Shown here one piece after another: positions 1,722-55,478 of a stretch of DNA of 64,000 nt. The stretch comes from Bdellovibrionales bacterium. Its GTDB lineage: Bacteria; Bdellovibrionota; Bdellovibrionia; Bdellovibrionales; JAUICD01. The translations under genes and the position numbers were made by a program. The DNA lies in the NCBI GenBank assembly GCA_965262715.1, contig OZ253553.1:896001-960000 (forward strand), given 5' to 3'. The notes under the pieces are model-generated. The model was not told where the DNA came from, ran no database searches, and was given only the letters and a program-made list of their open reading frames with translations. Positions within the stretch are counted from its first letter, which is position 1. Each line of letters opens with the position of its first letter.

Positions 1722-4496
1722 TTAAAAAGCTCCAATAGAAAAGTGTAGACGTCCTAAACTTTCTTCTTCTCGGCGTTGCAATTTAAGACCATATTCTATA
1801 CTAACAGGGCCTACGGGTGTAGAGATGCGAAGGCCTAATCCCACAGAGCTTCTGTATTCATCTTTTTCATGCCTTTGAGCAATGTTTACAGCACCTCCAT
1901 CGTGAAATAAAACTCCTCTTAGTGCCTTAAAAATAGGAAATCTTAATTCTGATTTCAAAAGATAGTAATAACTGTAAGTTAAAATTGTTAAAGGATCTCT
2001 ATCACTTACCAAGTCAGCTCTGTTAGGAATAGATTTTAAAGGATAACCTCTGATAGAAGATTGTCCGCCTAACAAGACAACCCTAGATTCTGGAATCTCT
2101 GAGGTGTCTCTATTGAGGTTTGTGATGTAACCTCCTGTGATAGAGTTTGCTAAAACAAATTTAGAAAGTAAAGGGGTGTAAAGATTAAATTTTCCTAAAA
2201 GACTTAGGAAACGAATAGATTGTCTAGAACCTAATAGAGGATCTGCAAAATCTAAATTGAATGTCGAATAAGTTCCTTTTGTTGTATTAAATGGGTTATT
2301 TCTATAATCTAACTCTATTCCAGGTCCAATTGACCCAATAATACTTAGTGGGCCTATATTTTCTGATTGATCATTATATTGTCTTGCGATATCTAATTTC
2401 CATAGACTGTAAAATAGAGTTATCTTTTTATTCATTTCACGCTCTAGTAAAAAATGAATAGAAGTTTGATTTCTTATAAAACGTTCATTGTTTGAGAGTT
2501 GGGTATATGAGACATCCTTCAAGTGGTCAAAGTGAATTCGACCTCTAGTTCTAGAACCAAAGATAAAAGGTTCATAATAGCTAACACCAATATCATATTG
2601 CAAAAAGTCAAAGTCAGTGTATTTTAGTTCTAAATTTGTGTTGAAGCCACGAGCTGTTCCTCCTAAATTACGATAACCAAGGCCAACAATACCTCTTAGA
2701 GTTAAATAAGACTCACTATTAACACCAAGGACAAAACGCAAAAGACCAGGGTTTCGGTCTGTAACACGTACTAAAACAGTTCTTTCTTCCAATAAAGAGC
2801 CTGCTTCAGGTAAAGTGATGTCTATACTAGAAAAGAGTCCGGTTTGTTGTAAGCGGTAACGACTTTCTCTTATCAAGCCCTGTGTTAATATATCACCAGA
2901 TTGAAAAGCTAGCTCCCTCAAAATTACTTGTGACTTAGTGATTTGATTACCTTGAATTAAAATATTGGCAACCTTCACTTCAGGACCTTCATGAAGCTCA
3001 AATAAAATATCAGCTTGTGTGTCATTGTTATAATATTTGATCACATTGTTTGGATTATTGATCTTTATATCTAAGAAGCCTTTTTGTAAATAATAATCTT
3101 CAATAACATCAAACCCTTCTTCCAAAAGTGAAAGATTTAAAGGTTCTCCTGGGCTTAACTTTAAAACTTCAAGCAACTCTTTATCTGTTACTTGATCATT
3201 GCCTCTAAAATCTATATTCCTTATTTTTGTAAGCGGACCTTCATTGATGAAAATCTGAACTGTGACCTGGTTATTTTCGCTGTCAAATTTTTCAACTACA
3301 GACTGTACATTCACTTTTAAGTAACCTTGATTCTGTAGAGTAGTGATCAATTTTCTGATATTTTTAAGCATATTATCTTTGACATAAACTTCTGCTATTT
3401 TTGAAAAAAAAGAACGATCAGACCTTAAGATATCAACATATTTTTGATTATTTTGCCTGTTTGCGTCTATAACTTGAATTTCTTGTAAATAGAACAAATG
3501 TCCAGGCTTAATATTAAAGAAAATATGATGTTCAAGCTTACCTTGTAATATTTTTTCAGAGACATTTACTTGCACCTTAGGGTAACCCTCACTTTCATAA
3601 AACTTCTTAATCCTCTGAGAAAATGTCATAAGTGATCCAAAGCTCTCAGGTGTTTTTAAAGAGAGACTTTCTATCACATCTGCTCTACTAGGCGGTGCTT
3701 TTTTGTAAGGAATAGAAGGTATTTTTTCTTGATCTTCAACTTTAACATGAATGAAAAAATGATAAGCATTCTCAATTTTATAAACGATATTAACTTCTGT
3801 TTTATCATTATTAAATTGTAATTGAGATTCTAATAATCTGGCTCTAAAATATTGTTTTTTGAATAGAAAATCTTGTAGGTCATTTTTAATTTTTATAAAG
3901 TGGTCTTTTGTATAAGAATCTTTTCTATAAGATTTAGCTTTTTTGAAGAGAAGGTTCCTTATTTTTTGAGAAGCGATGAAATCTATAGATTTAATTTTAC
4001 AAATAAACCCTTCTACAATATCAATTTTAACATTTACTCCTTGATTTGTAGTGTTCTCAATATCTATATCTATTTTAATATTAAAATAACCTTTATCCCT
4101 GTATTGGTTTTTAATTTGTTCTAAAGCTGTAGTCAGTTGTTGTTTTGTGAAAATACTGCCAACAGATATGTTAAGTAGATTCAATATTTCGTCTTGAGAA
4201 AAAATTTGATGACCAGTGATTGAAATATCTTTGAGAGTTCTATTTTGTGAAGCCTTTATTTCCCAGTATATCTGGCCGTTTTTTTGAGTTTTTAATAGAT
4301 CGACAGTTTCATATTGTCCTAGTTTAAAAATTTCTTTGAGTAATCTATTAGCTTCTGATAAAGAAAGATTTTTCTTTAATAGGCCTTTCTTAGAAAGAGC
4401 TTGTTTGTCTTTTTGAGTTAACCCTACATAAGATGTAGGTGCGGAGATAACTTGAGGAGTGTATATAAGTATAAAAAGGAAAACCAATTGTCTCAT
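1722..4496 (-). CDS. Omp85 (BamA/TamA) family outer-membrane assembly protein with multiple POTRA domains
   Basis: Signal peptide; repeated POTRA-like segments (YxxxGY, I-x-EGP); IRGY motif; C-terminal Phe; adjacent to tamB-like gene. Confidence 0.9.
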   Translation of the reverse strand: MRQLVFLFILIYTPQVISAPTSYVGLTQKDKQALSKKGLLKKNLSLSEANRLLKEIFKLGQYETVDLLKTQKNGQIYWEIKASQNRTLKDISITGHQIFSQDEILNLLNISVGSIFTKQQLTTALEQIKNQYRDKGYFNIKIDIDIENTTNQGVNVKIDIVEGFICKIKSIDFIASQKIRNLLFKKAKSYRKDSYTKDHFIKIKNDLQDFLFKKQYFRARLLESQLQFNNDKTEVNIVYKIENAYHFFIHVKVEDQEKIPSIPYKKAPPSRADVIESLSLKTPESFGSLMTFSQRIKKFYESEGYPKVQVNVSEKILQGKLEHHIFFNIKPGHLFYLQEIQVIDANRQNNQKYVDILRSDRSFFSKIAEVYVKDNMLKNIRKLITTLQNQGYLKVNVQSVVEKFDSENNQVTVQIFINEGPLTKIRNIDFRGNDQVTDKELLEVLKLSPGEPLNLSLLEEGFDVIEDYYLQKGFLDIKINNPNNVIKYYNNDTQADILFELHEGPEVKVANILIQGNQITKSQVILRELAFQSGDILTQGLIRESRYRLQQTGLFSSIDITLPEAGSLLEERTVLVRVTDRNPGLLRFVLGVNSESYLTLRGIVGLGYRNLGGTARGFNTNLELKYTDFDFLQYDIGVSYYEPFIFGSRTRGRIHFDHLKDVSYTQLSNNERFIRNQTSIHFLLEREMNKKITLFYSLWKLDIARQYNDQSENIGPLSIIGSIGPGIELDYRNNPFNTTKGTYSTFNLDFADPLLGSRQSIRFLSLLGKFNLYTPLLSKFVLANSITGGYITNLNRDTSEIPESRVVLLGGQSSIRGYPLKSIPNRADLVSDRDPLTILTYSYYYLLKSELRFPIFKALRGVLFHDGGAVNIAQRHEKDEYRSSVGLGLRISTPVGPVSIEYGLKLQRREEESLGRLHFSIGAF

Positions 4497-41315: not shown

Positions 41316-41392
<77 letters not shown>

Positions 41393-41508
41393 ATGAAGAA
41401 ACTTGGTAAAGGATAATGCAAATAAATGAATTAACCTGCGACCCGCATAGGCAAAATTTGCGGATAGCAAATTTTGGCTGAAAAAAAGGCTCATCGCAAG
41501 ATGAGGCA

Positions 41509-41539
41509 GTCGCAAGTTCAAATCCTGTCTCCCCGACCA
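41509..41539 (+). repeat. Copy of the tRNA-Pro 3' half (att-like)
   Basis: gtcgcaagttcaaatcctgtctccccgacca. Confidence 0.9.
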
Positions 41540-41579
41540 TTTCCTTAACATTGAGTGAATGCCGTATGATAACAAAATA

Positions 41580-41679
41580 CTCAAAATAAACTGAAACTTT
41601 TGAGACATCAGCCATTTAAGACCGTTCTAACGGTCGGGCTGATGCCCAAAAGCACACCAGAGGTGTGGTTTATTTTGAG
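41580..41679 (-). repeat. Hairpin element G
   Basis: Same fold; cacacc-AGA-ggtgtg side hairpin. Confidence 0.85.
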
Positions 41680-41686
41680 GAAAAGA

Positions 41687-41716
41687 TCGCAAGTTCAAAT
41701 CCTGTCTCCCCGACCA
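41687..41716 (+). repeat. Second copy of the tRNA-Pro 3' half (att-like)
   Basis: tcgcaagttcaaatcctgtctccccgacca. Confidence 0.9.
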
Positions 41717-41825
41717 TCTCTGATATTGGACGAACCTAAGACCATTAAATGTTCATTATGGCACAAGGCATAAGTTCCAAGTCCAGCAGCTTTTTTAATG
41801 TCTGAAAACCAATCTTTTTTATAGT

Positions 41826-43428: not shown

Positions 43429-44744
43429 GGCCTTGTTGCACAAAGATTTAAATAGTTTTTATTTTATTTATTTTTTAAGTAAGATTGTCATTTAATATTT
43501 TTTTATCAAAGAGAAGAAGGCACAATCATCTGATTAAGGATTTTACATTTAATAAACACTTCATTTGCTTGACGATGAAATTCTCTAGAAGATAATTTAT
43601 CACCTAATAAAGTTTTAAATCTATACATAGCTGTTTCTGATATAGACCTCCTGTGATATTTATGTTTTTTTTTCCACTTCTTTCTACCCATCTTCTTGAT
43701 TTCTCTAATATAAGTATCTCTAAGAAGCGGCGATCCCCGACAATTTCCATGCCTCTTAATCACAGCATTCTTTCTAGGTGGAGCAACCAATTTTATACTT
43801 CTATCACTTGTAAACTGATAACAATTCTTACAGTCATAAGCCCCATCAACTGAAACTTGGCCTATCTCATCTTCATATCCTGTCAATAACTCTTCAAAAA
43901 CCTCATTATCCTTTACAGAATTATCACTTAAAACAGATGCCTTAATCTGGGAATTTGACTCATCTACCGCTAAATGTAGCTTCTTCCATGTCCTTCTCTT
44001 AGAATACCCATGCTGACGGACTTTCCACTCTCCCTCCCCATAAACTTTAAGACCTGTGGAATCAATGACAATATGAGGATTCTTGTGAGAAGATAGCTTT
44101 CTTTCTAGTTTTACTGATAACTTCTGTAATCTTCTGCAAAGAGTTGTATAATTAGGTATTTCTATATCAAGACCCATAAGTTCAACTAGGGATTTAGCAA
44201 AACCTTCTGTAGATCGCAATTTTAAACCAAATATGAATCTTAATATATTAAGAGTTTCAATAGCTTTATCAGAGTAAACTTGTTGACCCCCTTGCTTTGA
44301 AGAACATTTTGCATACCAAGATTTGACGATATCTGCTGAAAACCAAAAAGTGATTTGACCTCTATTGACTAGAGACTTATTATAAAGACTCCAGTTTATT
44401 TTTTTATTTTTACCCATCTCTAGCTCCTTCTGATTTAGTGATTGTGAAAGTTGGGGATGGGTAAATTTTATAATCATTAAAAACAAAAAATCAAAGTAAT
44501 AGATATATCAAACTCAGGAAAGATCTTATTGCATAAAAATTTAAGAATGAGATTTGTGAAAGACTTCTGAAATAGGACTAGGCTAGCGGCTTAGGGTAAA
44601 TATCTCTTAAACTATTTTATTCTATAATAAAATCTTAAAATAATAGCAATACAAGGCGCGGGGGTTGCCTAGAGCCTATGGAAGATGCCTGACTTAATTC
44701 TCTAATCTTTTATATACTTCCTTAAATCTTTGTGCAACAAAGCC
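43429..44744 (-). mobile_element. IS903-like insertion sequence, copy B (1316 bp)
   Basis: Same TIRs; 9-bp TSD ACTTGTAAC at 43420..43428 and 44745..44753. Confidence 0.93.
43506..44417 (-). CDS. IS903-like transposase
   Basis: One amino-acid difference from copy A (N/D). Confidence 0.92.
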   Translation of the reverse strand: MGKNKKINWSLYNKSLVNRGQITFWFSADIVKSWYAKCSSKQGGQQVYSDKAIETLNILRFIFGLKLRSTEGFAKSLVELMGLDIEIPNYTTLCRRLQKLSVKLERKLSSHKNPHIVIDSTGLKVYGEGEWKVRQHGYSKRRTWKKLHLAVDESNSQIKASVLSDNSVKDNEVFEELLTGYEDEIGQVSVDGAYDCKNCYQFTSDRSIKLVAPPRKNAVIKRHGNCRGSPLLRDTYIREIKKMGRKKWKKKHKYHRRSISETAMYRFKTLLGDKLSSREFHRQANEVFIKCKILNQMIVPSSL

Positions 44745-47128
44745 ACTTGTAACATGAATTGCTTAGAAGCCATCCATGCCCCTAAACAAAGAAATAAGTC
44801 GTCAGGCACTTCAGGTTTTTTGAGCCAAATTGAATGTCCGGAAGTCCCAATACCACTACTACAACCGTTCATGTCCAGTGAGAATTTTAACCTATCTTTG
44901 CTTGCAGGCTCTCTTGGCATAAAGTAACGAAGGTTTTTTAATTGTTCACCATATTTTTCAAGTTTTTCGCAACCTCTCCATGAGTAAGGAAAAGCTGCAG
45001 CGACTTGGCTTCTTGAAGCTAAAAGTTGTTCTTCCTCGATAGTCAATTTTACAATTGATTTTGGAAATGTTGTACCTCTGGGAACAAACATGATATCTTT
45101 ACTATCACTCTTATCCCACAATAAGGTGCGAAGGTTTCTTGCATTAGGATAAACTTTTTTAACCCACATTCTTTTATCACTTGTTTTTTTGATTCTTTTG
45201 GCCAATTCAATGTATACTCTCTTTTTAGAAGGTTCAAATCCCTTCGCAGAAATAATAAACTTTCCAATAGGTAATCCCGAATTGCTAGTATTAGAATGAG
45301 ATACTCCTAGAGGAGTTGTAATAAAATCTTTATTTTTAAGCATCTCTCCCCAAAAGCATTCAGCAACTAATGACGCTGGTGAATGAGGAAACCTTTTTAC
45401 AGATCGATGGTCAATGAATTTAAAATTTTCTTTCTTTGCCCATATTCGAAAATTTTCATGACTCTTGTTATGAAGAACTTGTTGTTTAATCAATAGCCCC
45501 ATTCTTGGGTTTTGTCCCCAATGAAAAATTCTTTCATCAAGCATGTGTCGGAGAACATAAATAGAAATATCAGAATCGTCAGAATAGATACTGCGGTAGG
45601 TATTTTGGAATAGGTCGCGATATTTATTAGCTCTAACACGATCCTTTGGTGCATCAATATTTCCCCAAGGAGGATTTCCGATGGCTAAAGTAACCTTTTT
45701 ATTCACAGTACAGTTAAAAAGGTTTTCATGATTCATTCCTTTTAACCTAGGAAGTCTCCAATTCGCTCCTAACTCACTTGGATCTGTATCCAAAATTTTC
45801 ACATAAGTACTTAATAGCATAGCCTTGCAACAACTAAGAGCATACTTGTCACAATCTATTGCAATTAGATTATTTGAAAAGAAGCTTTCTAGCTTTCTCT
45901 GGTCTATATTCTCCATACTCTCCCATGCGATCTCTGAAGCAACACACAAAAGTGTGCCTGATCCGGCTGCAGTGTCTATTATTACATCCTCAGTTGTCGG
46001 TTTTAACTTTCTAATCATCTCAATAGCTAAATCTTCAGGAGTATATATACTTGTACTACTTATCTCTTTGCCATAAATAATTTTTAAGACTGATTCATAT
46101 GCATATCCGAGGGTATCAGCGTGAAGAAGGTCAAGTCTCGTACAAAGCTTTTTTGTATGACCATATATCTCCCACATTAATCCATTCCATTCATTGTTTA
46201 GAGGAATAAAGTTTTCATTTAATAAACGATTAAGTTCTTTAGTTACACCTAAGATATTTCCATTTTTTTCTAAATCTTTCAATTTATCGTTAGGAATAAT
46301 TCCACAATCTCTTAATACAGCAATCAAAAAGAGTTGAACCCAATAGTCAAAAGCTAAAATATTTTCATCTACAACACTAATTATTTGTTTAAGAATATCT
46401 TGGAACTCCTTCTGAAGAGTTTTATCAAGAATACCTTCTGGTCTTGTATCTATATAAGGAGCACGTTGTAAAGAGTGAGCAAATTCACCATTGGAAACTT
46501 TGTCTAATATTTTAGTAAATTTTGAGAAACCACCCTCATCAGTGAGGTCAAAAACAATCTTTCCAGCTTTGGCCATTGGATACTCTATTGATCCATCGAA
46601 TATAATAGCTTTTTTCCCATTAGTAAGGATTCCTAAAGGATAAACTATCCTGCCATCCTTATAAAAGTTAAAGGAGAAAGCATATCGATGTGCCTGTTGA
46701 AATGCGTTTTCAAGTGGCTCTTCTTGACCTGGTCTTTTAAGCTCTATTGCTAGTTGACATCTTCCCTTCTTCATAATGCGAACATCAACTATTCCTTTTG
46801 GTCCTCTTCGTTCGTGTTGAAGTTCACCGATCGTGAGATCAAAATAGTCCGCAGCTAAAACAGTAAACCAGTTACTATGTAGTTCAGCTTCATTACCACA
46901 GTTTTTGACGACCTGTACGTGCCAATTGAAGTTCTTTTTACCCATAAACTTTATTATGAATAAACTTATTTGCGAAGTATATTTCCAGCTTATTCCTCTC
47001 TGAATTTAGGAATAAAGTTTAGGAGTTAACTTGGACAAACATCCTTCTGATTTTGAACCTAAGTTAAGAAACCTTAAATTGATTTTTTTGTGACCATTTA
47101 GTTAGATATGGTTATATAGAAGGAGCTC

Positions 47129-47326: not shown

Positions 47327-47620
47327 TTAAAAATCCTATTGAATATAAAAGATTTATAATAATTGCTTTTTCAAATAAAGATCAATTTAATAAAGGAAAA
47401 GTCAATAGAATAAGCAATACCTTTGTGATTTTTTAGCAAACCCTTCTGATGATGAAAGTCCTTTCTTAATTCTTTTAGAAGTCGTTTCCTGAATATCGAG
47501 TAAAAGCTTCTTGGCACAATAACCTGACCCAAATATCTAAAACACTAAGTGTTTCTCTTGATAAGTTGATTAAACCTTGAAATGTGGTTTAAAATCTATT
47601 TAGTATGTTTAGGAAATGGT

Positions 47621-48547
47621 ATGACTAGTAAAGACTTTCCCACAATGTTCCAAGCAGCAGATAGCTGCGCAATAAGTTCACAAGCTATATATCTTCGTCT
47701 AATCAAAGCTGATATCGTACTTTTGATATTGGGACCATTGTTAGCAATTCTACCAGAACTGCTACCAAATTTTTCGATTTCTTGGTTAAAAAACATTGGA
47801 GTCCTCATGTCTATGAGCACTATTATTGTGACACTTCTAATATATTTATGGGGAAAAGACAAGGCATGGTATGGGTCAAGAGCAGTGGCCGAATCAATAA
47901 AAACATTAACTTGGCGCTATATCACTGGTGCTACTCCTTTTCCAATTGATATGGGTCAAAAAGATGCTGATAGACAATTTGGCAATACCTTACAGAAGTT
48001 AATGGAGCAAGAAAGTAAATTAAATTGGGTTTATAACTTAGATGCAAAGGTCGATCAAATAACTGAAGTGATGAGGACTCAACGAAATAAATCTATACGT
48101 GAACGAAAAAACTATTATATTAAATCAAGACTTGAAGAACAGTGTCAATGGTATGCAAGAAAAGCAAAATTTAATACCAGCAGGAAAAATCTATTTTTAT
48201 TTCTAATAATAATCATGCAGTTACTAATACCCGTTTTAATTTATAATGCTGTCCAAATTTTAACTATTGCAGTTGCAAGTGTATTTACTACTGTTGCAAC
48301 AGGTTTAATTCTTTGGGTTAATACTAAAAAATACCATGAATTATCTCAAGTATATGCCCTTACAGCACAAGAGCTTGGGGTTATAAAAACTAGTGCATAT
48401 CATATTAATTCTGACAAAGACTTATCAGACTTTGTAGCTGATACCGAAAGTGCATTCTCTAGAGAACACACTATGTGGATTGCAAGAAGAAATCATATAC
48501 CTATGATAAGGGAACATTCAAATGAGCAGGAAGTGGGTTTACAATAG
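47621..48547 (+). CDS. SLATT/DUF4231-type membrane effector with two 2-TM modules (ORF track starts at 47582)
   Basis: WYGSRAVAESIKTLTWRY, YIKSRLEEQCQWY and ESAFSREHTMW motifs; four TM segments. Confidence 0.8.
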   Translation: MTSKDFPTMFQAADSCAISSQAIYLRLIKADIVLLILGPLLAILPELLPNFSISWLKNIGVLMSMSTIIVTLLIYLWGKDKAWYGSRAVAESIKTLTWRYITGATPFPIDMGQKDADRQFGNTLQKLMEQESKLNWVYNLDAKVDQITEVMRTQRNKSIRERKNYYIKSRLEEQCQWYARKAKFNTSRKNLFLFLIIIMQLLIPVLIYNAVQILTIAVASVFTTVATGLILWVNTKKYHELSQVYALTAQELGVIKTSAYHINSDKDLSDFVADTESAFSREHTMWIARRNHIPMIREHSNEQEVGLQ

Positions 48548-49472
48548 TAAAGAGATACAGCTACCAGTTTATTTTTACTCTATATCTAGTGTCAAAACTC
48601 GGTTAAACACACTAGAGTATTTAAGAATCTTGATAAGATTGGAATGCAAAAACTTATTGGTTTCTGCCTATGATTTTAACAACTGTCATGATGTTGCAAT
48701 GATCCAAAGGGTTCTGAATAACAAACCAAATGGTACTATTATCCTAATGGATTGTGGAAATTATGAAAGTTATTGGATGAAGGATAAAAGTTGGTCTCAA
48801 AATGACTTTCACAATACTCATAAAAAATACAAGCCTGATTACTCATTTAGCTTTGATAATAACACACCTAGTAAAGATATAGAGGCATTCACTCCTGAAT
48901 TGATAGAATCTTACCAGTCCGATTGTAAAGCCATGGAAGGGTGTAATCTAATCCCAATCCTACATGGGGAATGTTCTGATATTTGCGAAAGGCTTGATGC
49001 ATTTCTGTCAAAATCAATGATAGAAATTATTGCAGTACCAGAGCGAATATTGGGAGGTGGAATATATGAGTGCTGTTTGTCTATTATCAAAATCCGAGAA
49101 GTTTTGAATTCTCACAATAATAATATTAAGCTTCATTTACTTGGAACTGGTAATCCTATTTCAATTCTTCTTTTTTCTTTGGCTGGAGCAGATAGCTTTG
49201 ATGGTTTAGAGTGGTGCCAAACTGTCGTAGATCATTTTTCTGGAAGACTTCACCACCTAAGCCATTGGGATTTTTTTAAAAATCAGACTGGGTGTTCGAA
49301 CTATCGTAATGTGCCGTTTGAGCAAAGCATCCTTGCACACAACATTATTTTTTACGAAAAATTTATGAAAGACTTACAAGATGCAATTAAGTCTGAATCT
49401 GTAGACTTAATGCTTCGTCATTTCTTACCTAATGGAGAATTTCTCAAAGTTAAAGAGTTACTAAGATTATGA
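48522..49472 (+). CDS. tRNA-guanine transglycosylase-like protein (Cap10/DpdA-like)
   Basis: ILMDCGNYE, FSFD, IPILHG, HLLGTG, GADSFDG, HN; no Zn-binding domain seen. Confidence 0.78.
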   Translation: MSRKWVYNSKEIQLPVYFYSISSVKTRLNTLEYLRILIRLECKNLLVSAYDFNNCHDVAMIQRVLNNKPNGTIILMDCGNYESYWMKDKSWSQNDFHNTHKKYKPDYSFSFDNNTPSKDIEAFTPELIESYQSDCKAMEGCNLIPILHGECSDICERLDAFLSKSMIEIIAVPERILGGGIYECCLSIIKIREVLNSHNNNIKLHLLGTGNPISILLFSLAGADSFDGLEWCQTVVDHFSGRLHHLSHWDFFKNQTGCSNYRNVPFEQSILAHNIIFYEKFMKDLQDAIKSESVDLMLRHFLPNGEFLKVKELLRL

Positions 49473-50107
49473 TAGCATTAAAGTCACCACCAATTGATCA
49501 ACTAACCAAAGCTGTTTTTTCTTTAGAGTCTAAACTTCCAGAATTTCAGCATAATCTTTGGAAAAAGCAAAGAGGTGATGAGCTTTTCAAAAAGTTGGCA
49601 ATAGCAATTACAAGCAGTCAGACACATTTTCAGCAAGCTTTAAATTTTATTGATGCAAACTATAGTATAATTATTGGCGAATCAAATGGCGAGTTTAAAA
49701 ATGGTATTCGATTTCAATCTAAAAAAATTGAATATATAAGGAGAACAAAAGAGGAAATTGATTCATTAGGAGGAATTATTAAATTTTTAAATAAAAGCCT
49801 TGATCCTATTGAAGCTAGAGAAAGACTGATACAGATGTCTGCAGGGATAGGCCCTAAGCAAGCAAGTTTCTTTTTGGTTAGTATTGGATGGACAAATCAA
49901 TTAGCTATTCTCGATAGACATATACTGAACTTTATGAGATTAATTAATCTTATAAAATGGAATACGTCTATTCAGAGACTATCTGAATATGTCAGAGTGG
50001 AGCAAAAATTTATTGAAATGTGTCGATCATTTAATAAATGTCCCTTTAAATTCGACCTAGCAATTTGGATAGTAATGCGTGAATGGAGAAAGCTAAATTG
50101 TCATTAG
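49469..50107 (+). CDS. OGG-like HhH N-glycosylase/DNA lyase (Cap11-like)
   Basis: GIGPKQASFFL...LAILDRH with catalytic Lys and Asp; DLAIW. Confidence 0.8.
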   Translation: MIALKSPPIDQLTKAVFSLESKLPEFQHNLWKKQRGDELFKKLAIAITSSQTHFQQALNFIDANYSIIIGESNGEFKNGIRFQSKKIEYIRRTKEEIDSLGGIIKFLNKSLDPIEARERLIQMSAGIGPKQASFFLVSIGWTNQLAILDRHILNFMRLINLIKWNTSIQRLSEYVRVEQKFIEMCRSFNKCPFKFDLAIWIVMREWRKLNCH

Positions 50108-50691
50108 TAACACTAGTATCCGGTGGAATGGATAGCACATTAATTGCCTCTCTATGCAAAGAAGAAGGGATACTTCAACACCCTATTTTTATTGATTATG
50201 GTCAATTGTCATCAAAATTAGAGTTCAGGGCAGCAATTAAAATCCACAAGAAACTGGAATTACCCGAACCCAAATATTTTGACTTAAGGAGTTATGGTTA
50301 CAATATCAGGTCAGGTTTGACAGACACCAAGTTGCGAGTTAACGAAGATGCCTTTCTCCCTGGAAGAAACATGCTATTTTTGACTATTGGAGCTTCATAC
50401 GCATATCAAGTTGGTGCTAAGGGCATCACTATTGGACTTTTAAATGAAGAAGCTAGTATTTTCCCAGATCAAACAAAGAAATTTGTAAATGAAGCCAACT
50501 CTTTAATCAATTTTATGATAGGCTATGAATTAAAAGTAGTGACTCCATTGATCAAAATGAGTAAGTTAGACGTAATTAAACTTTTAAGAGTGCGAGGTTT
50601 ACAGGACACGTACTCTTGTCATATTGGAAATAAAAATCCGTGCGGAAAATGTATTTCCTGTTTAGAAATAAATAACAGTATAGGAATATAA
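50083..50691 (+). CDS. QueC-like (Cap9-like) adenylating enzyme
   Basis: SGGMDS PP-loop, DYGQ, PGRN, FPD, SC...CGKCISC Zn site. Confidence 0.9.
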   Translation: MEKAKLSLVTLVSGGMDSTLIASLCKEEGILQHPIFIDYGQLSSKLEFRAAIKIHKKLELPEPKYFDLRSYGYNIRSGLTDTKLRVNEDAFLPGRNMLFLTIGASYAYQVGAKGITIGLLNEEASIFPDQTKKFVNEANSLINFMIGYELKVVTPLIKMSKLDVIKLLRVRGLQDTYSCHIGNKNPCGKCISCLEINNSIGI

Positions 50692-50692
50692 T

Positions 50693-51172
50693 ATGGGCGG
50701 TGGAGGTGGATATCAAAGGCTAAGTGAGGAAGGACTATCAAGCCTTGCTGAACAAGCAAAAAAGGAATTAAAGGGTTCTTCGAAAGGGCAACACAATGTA
50801 TTTATTAGCTTTGATACAGATGATTTGGCAGAGGTGAATCTCCTTAGAGGACAAGAAAAAAGTAAGAGCAATGAAGTTGAATTTAAAGATTGGTCTGTCA
50901 AAAAACCCTACGATAGTCAAAATGCAGAATATATTAAAAGAAAAATTAGAGAGCGTATCCGCCAATGTTCTACAACAGCTGTCTATATTTCTAAGAAAAC
51001 TCATAAAAGTAAATGGGTAGATTGGGAAATTAAAGAGAGTATTGAAATGGAAAAGAAGGTGGTCGGTTTTTATAAGGGTACCAACCCCCCGTCAAAGTTA
51101 CCAAAAATAATAACTGATAATAATATTAAATGTGTGCAGTGGACCCATGAAAACCTTAAAAACAAACTTTAA
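50693..51172 (+). CDS. ThsB/DUF1863-like TIR-domain protein with N-terminal poly-Gly extension
   Basis: NVFISF, DWSV, IRERI..CS, SKWVDWEI with catalytic Glu; starts MGGGGG. Confidence 0.85.
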   Translation: MGGGGGYQRLSEEGLSSLAEQAKKELKGSSKGQHNVFISFDTDDLAEVNLLRGQEKSKSNEVEFKDWSVKKPYDSQNAEYIKRKIRERIRQCSTTAVYISKKTHKSKWVDWEIKESIEMEKKVVGFYKGTNPPSKLPKIITDNNIKCVQWTHENLKNKL

Positions 51173-51281
51173 CACTTTTAGATTAGGGGTTTGGTAACAG
51201 ATATTTTGAGGTAACTCGCAGGTAATTCGATGGTTAATAATAAAAATGAGACAAATATAAAGTTTTTAATTAATAGGTTAT

Positions 51282-51602
51282 ATGAACCTTATATTATTTC
51301 GTCATGGTCCACCCATAGATTCTATTGAATGGCTACAACAAGGTGAAAAAGAAGGTGAGCGATTGCCCTCTTTAAAAAGATGTAATCGGATCCATTGGAT
51401 CAAAGAACTAATAGAAAAGAAGGATCATTCTAGTATTAGATGTTGGGAAGAAATCCGTAGGACAAAAAAAAGTGAATGTACGAGAGTTCATTTAGCTCTT
51501 AAAGATTTTAGTTATATGGTAGTACTTGAAGAAAGAGTCGATTATTGGTTACTCATTACAGCGTTTCCTATTGATAGAAAACATCAGAGAGAGAGAAAAT
51601 GA
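51282..51602 (+). pseudogene. Chimeric ORF: copy of the sixA 5' end fused to an unrelated island-protein C-terminus
   Basis: First 27 aa nearly match those encoded at 54951; the rest is unrelated (RCNRIHWIKELIE...YWLLITAFP). Confidence 0.65.
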
Positions 51603-51992: not shown

Positions 51993-52049
51993 TTTTTCCT
52001 CCTTTTTTAAAAATAGGTGTATAAATACTTTTTTTGATTTTATGTTTTT

Positions 52050-52249
52050 TAAAAGCTTCTAAAATAGAGGTTTTTGACCATAAATATTGAGTGAGTTTCT
52101 CAATATTGCGAGTCGAAAGCTTAAAATCGACATAAAGTTTCCATAAAATTCCAGAATTTTCTGCTGGAATGTTAAGAAAATGTGTAATAAATATAGATAC
52201 ATAGTTGGAGTTATGGGTAGGTTTGTTTATTATCTCACCTCCCCGACCA
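52050..52249 (+). repeat. Island right-end segment ending in the att core; diverged copy at 54690..54893
   Basis: ctaaaatagaggtttttgaccataaa...gggtaggtttgttta...ctccccgacca in both copies. Confidence 0.85.
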
Positions 52250-52426
52250 TTTCCTTAACATTGAGTGAATGCCGTATGATAACAAAATACTCAAAATAAA
52301 CTGAAACTTTTGAGACATCAGCCATTTAAGACCGTTCTAACGGTCGGGCTGATGCCCAAAAGCACACCAGAGGTGTGGTTTATTTTGAGGAAAAGATCGC
52401 AGGTTCAAATCCTGTCTTTTCAACCA
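52239..52426 (+). repeat. Near-exact copy of 41529..41716 (att core, hairpin element H at 52290..52389, degenerate tRNA 3' half)
   Basis: Direct sequence match at offset 10710. Confidence 0.92.
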
Positions 52427-52521
52427 CTGAAAATAATATAAAAATTGTAATGAAAAAGTATTAAAAATAAATTAGGATTAATCAATTGAAAATAATATAA
52501 CCCCTTAAGGAGGTACAAGTT

Positions 52522-53613: not shown

Positions 53614-54322
53614 TTAGAGTGCTTTGAGTTGGTCTCTGAGATATTGCTTCTTGGTTGTGAGTATATGAATTTCACCTTTAAGCTTTTCAACTTGTACCAA
53701 ATACCACTTTTCCAAATCTGTTTTTTCCTGCTGTGCTGAGATAAGAAAATTTTTGAGTTCTGAGTGGCCTTGTTGCACAAATATGATTCTATTACATAAG
53801 ATTACCATTGGTGCCTTTTGACAGGCTTTTTCACTAGCAGGAGAGAGCCTCCGTGCCTTGCATTGCTGTTATTTTGTGATTTGATTATAGAATCAAATAT
53901 TTTAATAAAGACTTTGTCTTTTAAGGCACTGGATAAGAGCTGGTTCACAAGCCTGTCAAAAGACACTACTAAAACATACAAGTATTTGTGCAACAAAACC
54001 GCTCTGAGTTATTGTTTTGCATCTGCAAAAGTTGATTTTTAAGCTGTTGGTTTTCAGTCATGTACTGCTGACTCTGTTGCCTCTCCGGCTCAAGTTGGGC
54101 AAGTTGCTCTTTGAGCTGTCCTAAATCCGTCTGAAAAGCTTTCTCTTGAAGATCCAAAGATAATTTTTGAATATGCCCATAAGCTTCCTTAAGCTGTTTT
54201 TGAAAAAGAGAAAATTTTTCCTCCCTTTGCAGTTTGTCTTTTTGAGACTGAGCATTTTCCCATCTAAGTCTTTTAAGGTAAGGTTTTACCCGTTTGTGAA
54301 TTTGATATTTATATTTAGCCAA
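53614..54322 (-). pseudogene. Coiled-coil protein gene interrupted by a MITE
   Basis: Frame rejoins as QNNNSELKNFL when 53766..54000 and one TSD are removed. Confidence 0.6.
53766..54000. mobile_element. 235-bp MITE with IS903-like ends
   Basis: TIRs ggccttgttgcacaaata / tatttgtgcaacaaaacc; TSD GTTCTGAGT/GCTCTGAGT with one mismatch; internal inverted repeat ttttgacaggct/agcctgtcaaaa. Confidence 0.85.
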
Positions 54323-54689
54323 ACGAGATTTAAGTTTTTCATTTTCAGTTTAAAAGGAATTGTTACAAGATCATGTAAATAACCAAGCTGTATATAATCT
54401 GCGACCCTAGACAAAACTTGCGGATAGCAAATTTATCATCTTTGAAAGATACTCCACAATATGGACAAGTCATTGATGTTTTAGATCTACTCTTAGATAT
54501 TCTTCGTGACTCGAAAGGTACTCAGGTTATGTCATTTGACTCGGTTAGCGAAGATCAATTTCCGGAACCGACAAGTTTTCAATAGTTAAATCTGGCATTA
54601 TTGCGTCGCGATGGGGATTTCCGTTTGATGGGAATCCATACTTCTTGGTTGATGCAAAACTATTCCCAGGCTCATCAGGTAGTTATGCT

Positions 54690-54893
54690 TTTAAAAAGCC
54701 TCTAAAATAGAGGTTTTTGACCATAAAGATTGAGTAAGTTCCTCAATATTGCAAATTGAAAGCTTGAGATCGACATAGGGTTTTTTGTAAAATTCTAGGA
54801 TTTTTTGCTGGAATATTAAGAAAATATGTAATAAATATAGATACATAGTTGGAGTTATGGGTAGGTTTGTTTACTATCTCATCTCCCCGACCA
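54690..54893 (+). repeat. Second island right-end segment with att core TCTCCCCGACCA (54882..54893)
   Basis: Diverged copy of 52050..52249. Confidence 0.85.
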
Positions 54894-54950
54894 CTTATTT
54901 ATTATGATAAAAAAAATGACATATATAAAATTTTTAACGAGTATAATTAT

Positions 54951-55478
54951 ATGAATCTTATATTATTTCGTCATGGTCCACCTATTGATTCTGTTGAATG
55001 GCTACAGAAAGGTAAAAAAGAGTCTGAACGTCCTCTAACAGAAGAAGGTGTACAAGTCACAAAGAAAGCATCTGAAGGATTAAAGAAAAACTTAAGTTTA
55101 CATCCTCAAGAAGAAACATCAGGTTGCTTTATTTACTCTAGCCCCTACACACGTGCCCTACAAACTGCAAATATCTTAAAAGATACATTACAAATTAAAG
55201 AAGATGTAACTGTCTTAGAAGAACTTACACCTCACAGCCACCCCAAGCAGTTTTCTAATATTATATTTTCTCATACAAAATCTCTGTTGGTCGCAGTAGG
55301 TCATCAACCTCTTTTATCACGCTTAGCTGGGTATTTATTATTTAGAGAAGATATATCCTATTTATCTATTGAAAGAGCAGGAGCTTTAAGCCTTCAAATC
55401 AATAGAGGCGAAATTATAAACCAACTGCTTTGGTTAATGACTCCTGAGCAACTTATTTCTATGGATACAAATTTTTAA
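54951..55478 (+). CDS. sixA: SixA-like histidine phosphatase
   Basis: RHG, RPLT..G, SSPYTRALQTA, VGHQP. Confidence 0.85.
   Translation: MNLILFRHGPPIDSVEWLQKGKKESERPLTEEGVQVTKKASEGLKKNLSLHPQEETSGCFIYSSPYTRALQTANILKDTLQIKEDVTVLEELTPHSHPKQFSNIIFSHTKSLLVAVGHQPLLSRLAGYLLFREDISYLSIERAGALSLQINRGEIINQLLWLMTPEQLISMDTNF

Follow-up and report, generated by a model that had tools for sequence, protein, structure and literature searches.

A 64,000-nucleotide stretch of DNA from a Bdellovibrionales bacterium (hereafter the window) carries an operon of five same-strand genes, overlapping or abutting one another, that encode in order a SLATT protein, a Cap10-like TGT, a Cap11-like OGG, a Cap9-like QueC and, last, a ThsB TIR. 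The operon is likely an anti-phage system, and we consider it probable that it is a Thoeris-type defence in which Cap9 tags Gly2 of the TIR, Cap10 licenses the TIR and cADPR opens the SLATT protein. The first-pass annotation had covered two of the five genes, the QueC-like and the TIR gene. The features of the operon and of the DNA around it are as follows.

41529..41716, no strand: left 188-nt direct repeat, the last part of which copies the 3′ end of tRNA-Pro
47621..48547, + strand: tandem SLATT_3 + SLATT_1 membrane effector, ThsH-like (Pfam SLATT_3 2e-35, SLATT_1 1.5e-29)
48522..49472, + strand: Cap10-like TGT-fold protein, 316 aa (PADLOC TGT 6.8e-19)
49469..50107, + strand: Cap11-like OGG helix-hairpin-helix glycosylase, 212 aa (Pfam Ogg-HhH 7e-24)
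50083..50691, + strand: Cap9-like short QueC, 202 aa from ATG 50083 (Pfam QueC 6e-39; PADLOC QueC 3e-27)
50693..50719, + strand: Gly tail of the TIR, residues 1-9 (fits the CBASS motif M(G/S)G(G/S)GG; Gly2 in 78/78 intact relatives; pLDDT <50)
50726..50776, + strand: amphipathic helix of the TIR extension, residues 12-28 (helix in the model; L15, L18 and A22 conserved at 90% or more)
50792..51172, + strand: ThsB-type TIR core (Pfam ThsB_TIR 1e-22; Glu112 in WVDWE; 8FZ9 the best fold match)
52239..52426, no strand: right copy of the 188-nt direct repeat (97% identity with the left copy)

The longest reading frame of the SLATT gene opens at 47582, its likely start being the ATG at 47621, while for the Cap9-like QueC relatives favour an alternative start, TTG 50098. 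A TIR and an effector thus occur in one operon (ThsB_TIR with SLATT_3/SLATT_1), which contains only one TIR, and the SLATT protein is 37% identical over 292 aa to that of a plain two-gene TIR-SLATT locus (L091). No CD-NTase domain was found among the operon genes with Pfam or PADLOC, and tblastn with two type IV cyclase queries, a search of limited sensitivity, detected none in the genome or in the TIR loci. A promoter/terminator scan stayed at chance level (24 versus 20.6 ± 4.7), and an Rfam scan returned tRNA only.

The first-pass annotation had placed the TIR start codon one base past the QueC-like stop, and this is indeed the arrangement: the stop codon TAA occupies 50689-50691, a single T follows at 50692, and the TIR ATG lies at 50693-50695, with an AGGA at 50682-50685, 7 nt 5′ of it. 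The reading frame (50693-51172, + strand) encodes 159 aa with the N-terminus MGGGGGYQRLSEEG, that is, MGGGGGY at its very start. A start further downstream, which the annotation had named as a possible flaw, is ruled out: there is no in-frame ATG, GTG or TTG before TTG45 and GTG48 (an ATT stands at 38), both of these lie in the TIR core, and later start codons would cut into or remove strand beta-A. A simple repeat or an assembly artefact is likewise ruled out, since the Gly codons are mixed (GGC GGT GGA GGT GGA) and the tail is conserved family-wide. Among 2222 reading frames of at least 100 aa in the same genome, each read from its first ATG, the window TIR is the only one to begin MGGG.

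The TIR matches Pfam ThsB_TIR over residues 37-127 (E 1e-22), and its best structural match is a B. cereus TIR (8FZ9, E 2e-8). In the AlphaFold2 model, based on a 42-row alignment and having a mean pLDDT of 81, residues 1-9 fall below a pLDDT of 50, residues 12-28 form a helix, residues 27-31 a low-confidence linker, and the first strand spans 34-39. By this layout the extension, which the annotation had put at about 30 aa, measures about 33 aa and consists of a loose Gly tail followed by an amphipathic helix, whose hydrophobic moment was matched by 1% of 2000 shuffles. Glu112, which we take to occupy the position of the TIR catalytic Glu, is invariant in the 42 alignment rows, and WVxWE is present in 79 of 80 TIR loci, with WIDWE in the remaining one. 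Of the columns on which 85% or more of 41 relatives agree, 11 differ in the window TIR, whose C-terminus is a few residues short. Since several of these deviations are common to a 93%-identical relative (P0001), they look natural. A complex prediction for the TIR-linked Cap9 with TIR residues 2-159, Zn and ATP scored 0.78, against 0.73 for one unrelated control partner, and was given no weight either way.

Conservation of Gly2 and the tail in QueC-linked TIRs, compared with ordinary ThsB, had been proposed as a check, and the comparison came out in favour of the tail. Of 892 TIR homologs the best 120 were examined, one of them being the window's own cluster. Gly2 is present in 119 of these, the remaining one having an internal MGGGG, and M(G/S)G(G/S)GG is exact in 104. 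A metagenome scan, from which we took the best 80 loci of 341 confirmed TIR relatives, gave 78 with an intact N-terminus (64 distinct over the first 40 aa), two being cut inside the tail. All 78 begin with MG, 76 with MG(G/S) and 50 with the full CBASS motif; the exact motif is missed by 28, as in L062, which begins MGTKTSD.

The tail goes together with the helper genes. In 74 of the 80 loci blastp places the end of a Cap9-like gene at -11 to +33 nt relative to the start of the TIR, and in four further loci the C-terminal cysteine end of Cap9 is visible upstream of the TIR. Cap10, Cap11 and Cap9 are all present in 42 of the 43 loci with at least 2.4 kb of upstream DNA; L005 keeps the tail with only a 3′ fragment of Cap9 and without Cap10 or Cap11. 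Upstream DNA of 3.8 kb or more is available for 34 loci, and every one of these carries an effector, SLATT (30) and/or TPR-S/MAP3K_TRAF (5). Control ThsB proteins differ on both counts: 17 matches in 14 of 400 same-phylum genomes lack the tail and have no Cap9 within 1.5 kb. Two control proteins, L098 from the phylum genomes and L004 from a separate genome-contig scan that yielded four loci, begin with MG but pass straight into the TIR core. The nearest tail-less TIRs with genomic context (L091 and L114) adjoin SLATT without Cap9, and where a cassette locus was seen to have a second TIR, as in 14 of the 80, that TIR has no tail. No other Cap10 match was found in the 400 same-phylum genomes, so the system appears sporadic within that sample. 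Scans of viral sequences gave two TIR loci and 24 QueC loci.

In a FastTree phylogeny of the TIR core (100 rows, 128 columns), which took in 11 of 34 MG-tailed representatives, the others having failed length or motif filters, all tailed rows fall into one 40-row clade (support 97). The association between tail and cassette therefore reflects one origin, not many. Seven of the 40 rows have no MG start (P0123, P0129, P0135, P0139, P0143, P0167 and P0258). Although they branch within the tailed clade, P0123 and P0129 carry an N-terminal extension of another, basic kind, and their core has drifted; P0123 has an additional C-terminal domain of about 90 aa. Cassette loss is possible for these two.

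Several relatives depart from the window's architecture. Cap10 carries an N-terminal TIR domain, giving fusions of 460-480 aa, at L068:4275-5684, L084:296-1744, L108:3277-4677, L110:3263-4666 and L117:927-2309, as judged by Pfam TIR_2 and TGT for L068 and L084 and by annotation or sequence for L108, L110 and L117. A PfkB kinase-family gene lies 5′ of the cassette on the Rhizobiaceae plasmids L108-L110 (at about 2030-3195) and at L117:11-853. At L171:3710-5494 a similar 390-aa gene stands before a divergent QueC-like gene and neither TIR nor Cap10 is present, an arrangement that resembles cluster 4 of PMC13082051. Many cassette operons contain an additional ThsB that has no tail and belongs to a distinct clade, placed between SLATT and Cap10 in L007, L010, L014, L018, L020 and L023 and after the tailed TIR in L029, L037 and L076; one effector may thus take both tag-dependent and tag-independent TIR input. 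On a viral contig (L121:1-926), a Cap11-like gene is accompanied by the opening ~80 codons of a Cap9-like gene, which is cut off beside phage-like genes.

We considered whether the helper enzymes retain their active sites. Against the PDB the Cap9-like QueC scores nearer to QueC (2PG3, 4e-18) than to Cap9 (9NTO, 1e-9), and it keeps the SGGxDS (SxGxDS) loop, RN, FPD and four Cys. The counterparts of Cap9 S18/D22/S23, R86, Y115 and D117 are S13/D17/S18, R95, F127 and D129, and those of the zinc-site cysteines are C179/187/190/193. TIR-linked Cap9 proteins have FPDQ where Cap9 and QueC have YxDC, with Gln in place of the Cys after the Asp. In a quick QueC tree of 18 TIR-linked rows, limited by its only two CBASS sequences and by long viral branches within the same loose group, the TIR-linked QueCs form a clade of their own (99), apart from the CBASS Cap9s. 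The sole PDB sequence match of the Cap10-like protein is Cap10 itself (9NTN, E 3e-6). Its H205 and D227 align directly to Cap10 H226 and D248, the latter being the nucleophile, and D77 is kept; S74 of Cap10 is replaced by Cys, in the window copy only. K154 of Cap10 is not clearly kept, its position appearing as His in the TIR-linked family, and D112 is a plausible counterpart of Cap10 D122, a mapping that is uncertain. The Tgt zinc motif was sought in the Cap10-like protein and is absent, as it is from Cap10 (bioRxiv 10.1101/2025.04.06.647259). Judged from alignment, Cap9, Cap10 and the TIR appear to have largely kept their key catalytic residues. The host genome encodes FolE and QueD-like and QueE-like proteins (the QueE-like gene scores 287.6 bits against TIGR04349, below the cut-off of 300), which makes a supply of 7-carboxy-7-deazaguanine (CDG) plausible, and it has a separate housekeeping QueC and Tgt.

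An N-terminal Met is removed when residue 2 is Gly, an established rule by which Met1 of the TIR would be lost, leaving Gly2 as the putative deazaguanine acceptor. Cap9 would adenylate host CDG, and the Gly2 amine would attack the product, adding 176 Da; the TIR helix 12-28, a putative docking helix like helix alpha1 of CdnD, would by that analogy be where Cap9 docks. By the same comparison with CBASS, Cap9 likely attaches 7-deazaguanine to Gly2 of the TIR. The guanine pocket of Cap10 would then hold the tagged tail and license the TIR during infection. Cap10 may also pass the tagged tail to a target via Asp227. The chances of this Cap10 step as a whole are in our view even, and Cap11 would likely reverse or limit it. 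Once activated, the TIR would cleave NAD+ using Glu112, most likely giving canonical cADPR, which would drive SLATT oligomerisation and abortive death.

Gating of SLATT by cADPR, as in type VII Thoeris, is in our estimate moderately likely, a reading taken from the effector type: with SLATT and/or TPR-S/MAP3K_TRAF in 34 of 34 long loci it is the likeliest output. The ThsH and ThsI effectors are reported to respond to canonical cADPR (bioRxiv 10.64898/2025.12.03.692087), and the TPR-S proteins of the relatives would be ThsI counterparts, SLATT and TPR-S being matched to ThsH and ThsI by domain. Counting against a cADPR output, a 2023 preprint describes BcTir, the nearest solved TIR, as having no NADase activity in the TIR itself (10.1101/2023.05.26.542521).

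That report also lends some weight to the idea that the tag is installed but the TIR is no cADPR synthase for SLATT, and instead produces a different ADPR isomer, depletes NAD+ by its own action or serves as a scaffold or sensor. The signal type is read here from the effectors and is untied to sequence, and the second, tail-less TIR of 14 of the 80 loci could be the synthase. Yet Glu112 is invariant, the window operon has a single TIR, and the SLATT or TPR-S effectors of all 34 long loci are both of kinds reported to be cADPR-gated; we regard a TIR with another function as quite unlikely. The tail could also enter the Cap9 and Cap10 pockets for a chemistry or role that differs from CBASS, with another base or an acyl group attached, with a tag of low occupancy as in QatB, or with binding without transfer that merely keeps the TIR inactive. 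The base-reading pocket is changed by the family-wide FPDQ of Cap9 and by the His that stands where Cap10 has K154, the separate clade of TIR-linked QueCs in the quick tree points the same way, and the QatB tag was missed by intact mass (PMC13639016). However, R95, D129 and the PP-loop, which in Cap9 hold NDG and ATP, are kept together with the His/Asp pair of Cap10, and the genes for making CDG are present in the host, so that such a departure from the CBASS scheme strikes us as unlikely.

We consider it very improbable that QueC, TGT and OGG act on nucleic acid, in a deazaguanine modification of DNA or tRNA, with the Gly tail as an unrelated linker. Glycosylases of the OGG type normally act on DNA, and the QueC has a better E-value against canonical QueC than against Cap9, both of which would fit such a role. 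Against it, the TGT has no Tgt zinc motif and matches Cap10 alone in the PDB, and the host owns a separate QueC and Tgt; moreover, a Gly run at the very terminus has nothing to link, and Gly2 is nevertheless present in 78 of 78 intact relatives and absent from cassette-less ThsB. Tagging of the TIR by Cap9 is thus the reading we prefer. It can be extended to a bolder scheme, possible although doubtful, in which the Gly tail and helix form a portable address tag, Cap10 staples the deazaguanine-charged TIR into phage nucleic acid, a row of tethered TIRs makes up a composite NADase site, Cap11 cuts off mis-stapled copies and the TIR-Cap10 fusions seed assembly. If this were true, TIR immunity would be switched on by covalent transfer of a protein to nucleic acid, and the Cap10 target, missed by work on CBASS, would come to light through a small TIR whose NAD+ read-out is easy.

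The operon lies inside a 10.7-kb island that adjoins tRNA-Pro and is flanked by the 188-nt direct repeats, and the GC content of the island (0.338) is similar to that of the window (0.329). The 3′ end of tRNA-Pro (gene at 41316-41392, 3′ end 41363-41422) recurs three times, at 41510-41569, 41687-41746 and 52397-52456, with spacings of 147, 177 and 10710 nt, and the last two copies end the 188-nt repeats; these copies look like stacked integration-site scars. A restriction-methyltransferase-like gene (HSDR_N + N6_Mtase, 44702-46945, - strand) is overlain at its 3′ end, and probably truncated, by an element at 43429-44744 that has 23-nt inverted repeats and contains a DDE transposase gene (43506-44486). 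Repeat ends related to those of the element recur at 53759-54007. Pieces of the locus at 54683-55030, an RHG-motif gene, presumably SixA-like, with its upstream DNA, are duplicated in the island at 51278-51602 and 52040-52257 with 87-91% identity. In a 106-aa reading frame at 51282-51602, likely a rearranged remnant, the first codons of the RHG-motif gene are fused to what PADLOC matches as the C-terminal half of PDC-M04B (E 3e-26).

Thoeris operons with cap9, cap10 and cap11 have already been reported (bioRxiv 10.64898/2025.12.03.692087, Fig. 6G, S10B). In that preprint AF3 placed ThsB on Cap10 with an ipTM of 0.79 and on Cap9 with 0.62, in a cyclase-like manner, and a ‘similar mechanism’ was suggested from prediction only. 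As far as the preprint's passages on these operons go, the window operon has the same parts and does not differ in kind. The first-pass annotation had proposed the TIR as the QueC substrate and as a third class of modified immune protein: the proposal itself is strengthened by Gly2 in 78 of 78 relatives, by the tail-less controls, by the Cap10- and Cap11-like genes and by the lack of any detected CD-NTase, whereas its newness falls away, the idea being in the same preprint (bioRxiv 10.64898/2025.12.03.692087). What we add is an apparently intact example, the count of Gly-tail conservation with tail-less controls, of which the preprint's passages on these operons contain none, and cultured sources of the system, namely Rhizobium etli CIAT 652 and Neorhizobium petrolearium OS53, which carry it on plasmids. 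The literature searched, largely without subscription journals, yielded no experiment on a tagged TIR. The window thus holds an apparently intact member of a predicted Thoeris subtype that is known here from its genes.

Confirmation of the tagging would mean that N-terminal deazaguanylation controls two unrelated signalling enzymes, the TIR being the second, and that Cap9/Cap10/Cap11 is a swappable activation module, as is Cap2/3, which activates both CD-NTases and TIRs (bioRxiv 10.64898/2025.12.03.692087). The 159-aa TIR would also give a simpler handle on the question of Cap10's transfer target in type IV CBASS (bioRxiv 10.1101/2025.04.06.647259).

With QatABCD the window system shares a QueC-family enzyme that engages an essential N-terminal Gly2 of its partner (PMC13376578, PMC13279940, PMC13639016). 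QatC, however, is an enzyme of about 400 aa with a remodelled site (PMC13082051), unlike the window QueC of about 200 aa; QatA, QatB and QatD are not among the window neighbours (SLATT, TGT, OGG and TIR), and QatABCD is without Cap10, TIR and SLATT. The annotation had treated deazaguanylation by defence QueCs as known, which is firm for CdnD, where the adduct has been shown (bioRxiv 10.1101/2025.04.06.647259), but divided for QatB: in one paper the adduct was seen by peptide LC-MS/MS and not by intact mass (PMC13639016), and in another the QatC reaction is called unresolved (PMC13279940).

Type IV CBASS shares with the window homologs of Cap9, Cap10 and Cap11 and, on the signalling enzyme, a tail of the form M(G/S)G(G/S)GG, the CBASS acceptor motif of Wassarman et al. 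(bioRxiv 10.1101/2025.04.06.647259), followed by a helix. The tailed enzyme is a CD-NTase in type IV CBASS and a ThsB TIR in the window operon, where no CD-NTase was found; Cap11 occurs in 42 of 43 long TIR loci but in about one third of type IV CBASS (bioRxiv 10.1101/2025.04.06.647259), and the window Cap9 and Cap10 are divergent from the solved CBASS chains (E 1e-9 and 3e-6). The cyclases of two type IV CBASS loci, L111:3625-6711 (Bacillus mycoides plasmid) and L112:3857-6930 (Pseudanabaena plasmid), begin MGGSGG and continue, in the same register, with a charged stretch. Neither of these CD-NTase stretches is significantly amphipathic, the TIR extension showed no local similarity beyond MGG to the one CD-NTase N-terminus compared (L112), and a TIR profile search of the PDB gave no CdnD chain among 12 matches up to E 10.

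Type VII Thoeris, which pairs ThsB with the SLATT effector ThsH and uses a cADPR signal, shares with the window a ThsB-family TIR and SLATT in one operon, a likeness drawn by domain, and differs in that the window has three extra helper genes and a 33-aa TIR extension. The window system is therefore type IV CBASS-like in its helper module, without being type IV CBASS, since no cyclase was detected, and type VII Thoeris-like in its effector.
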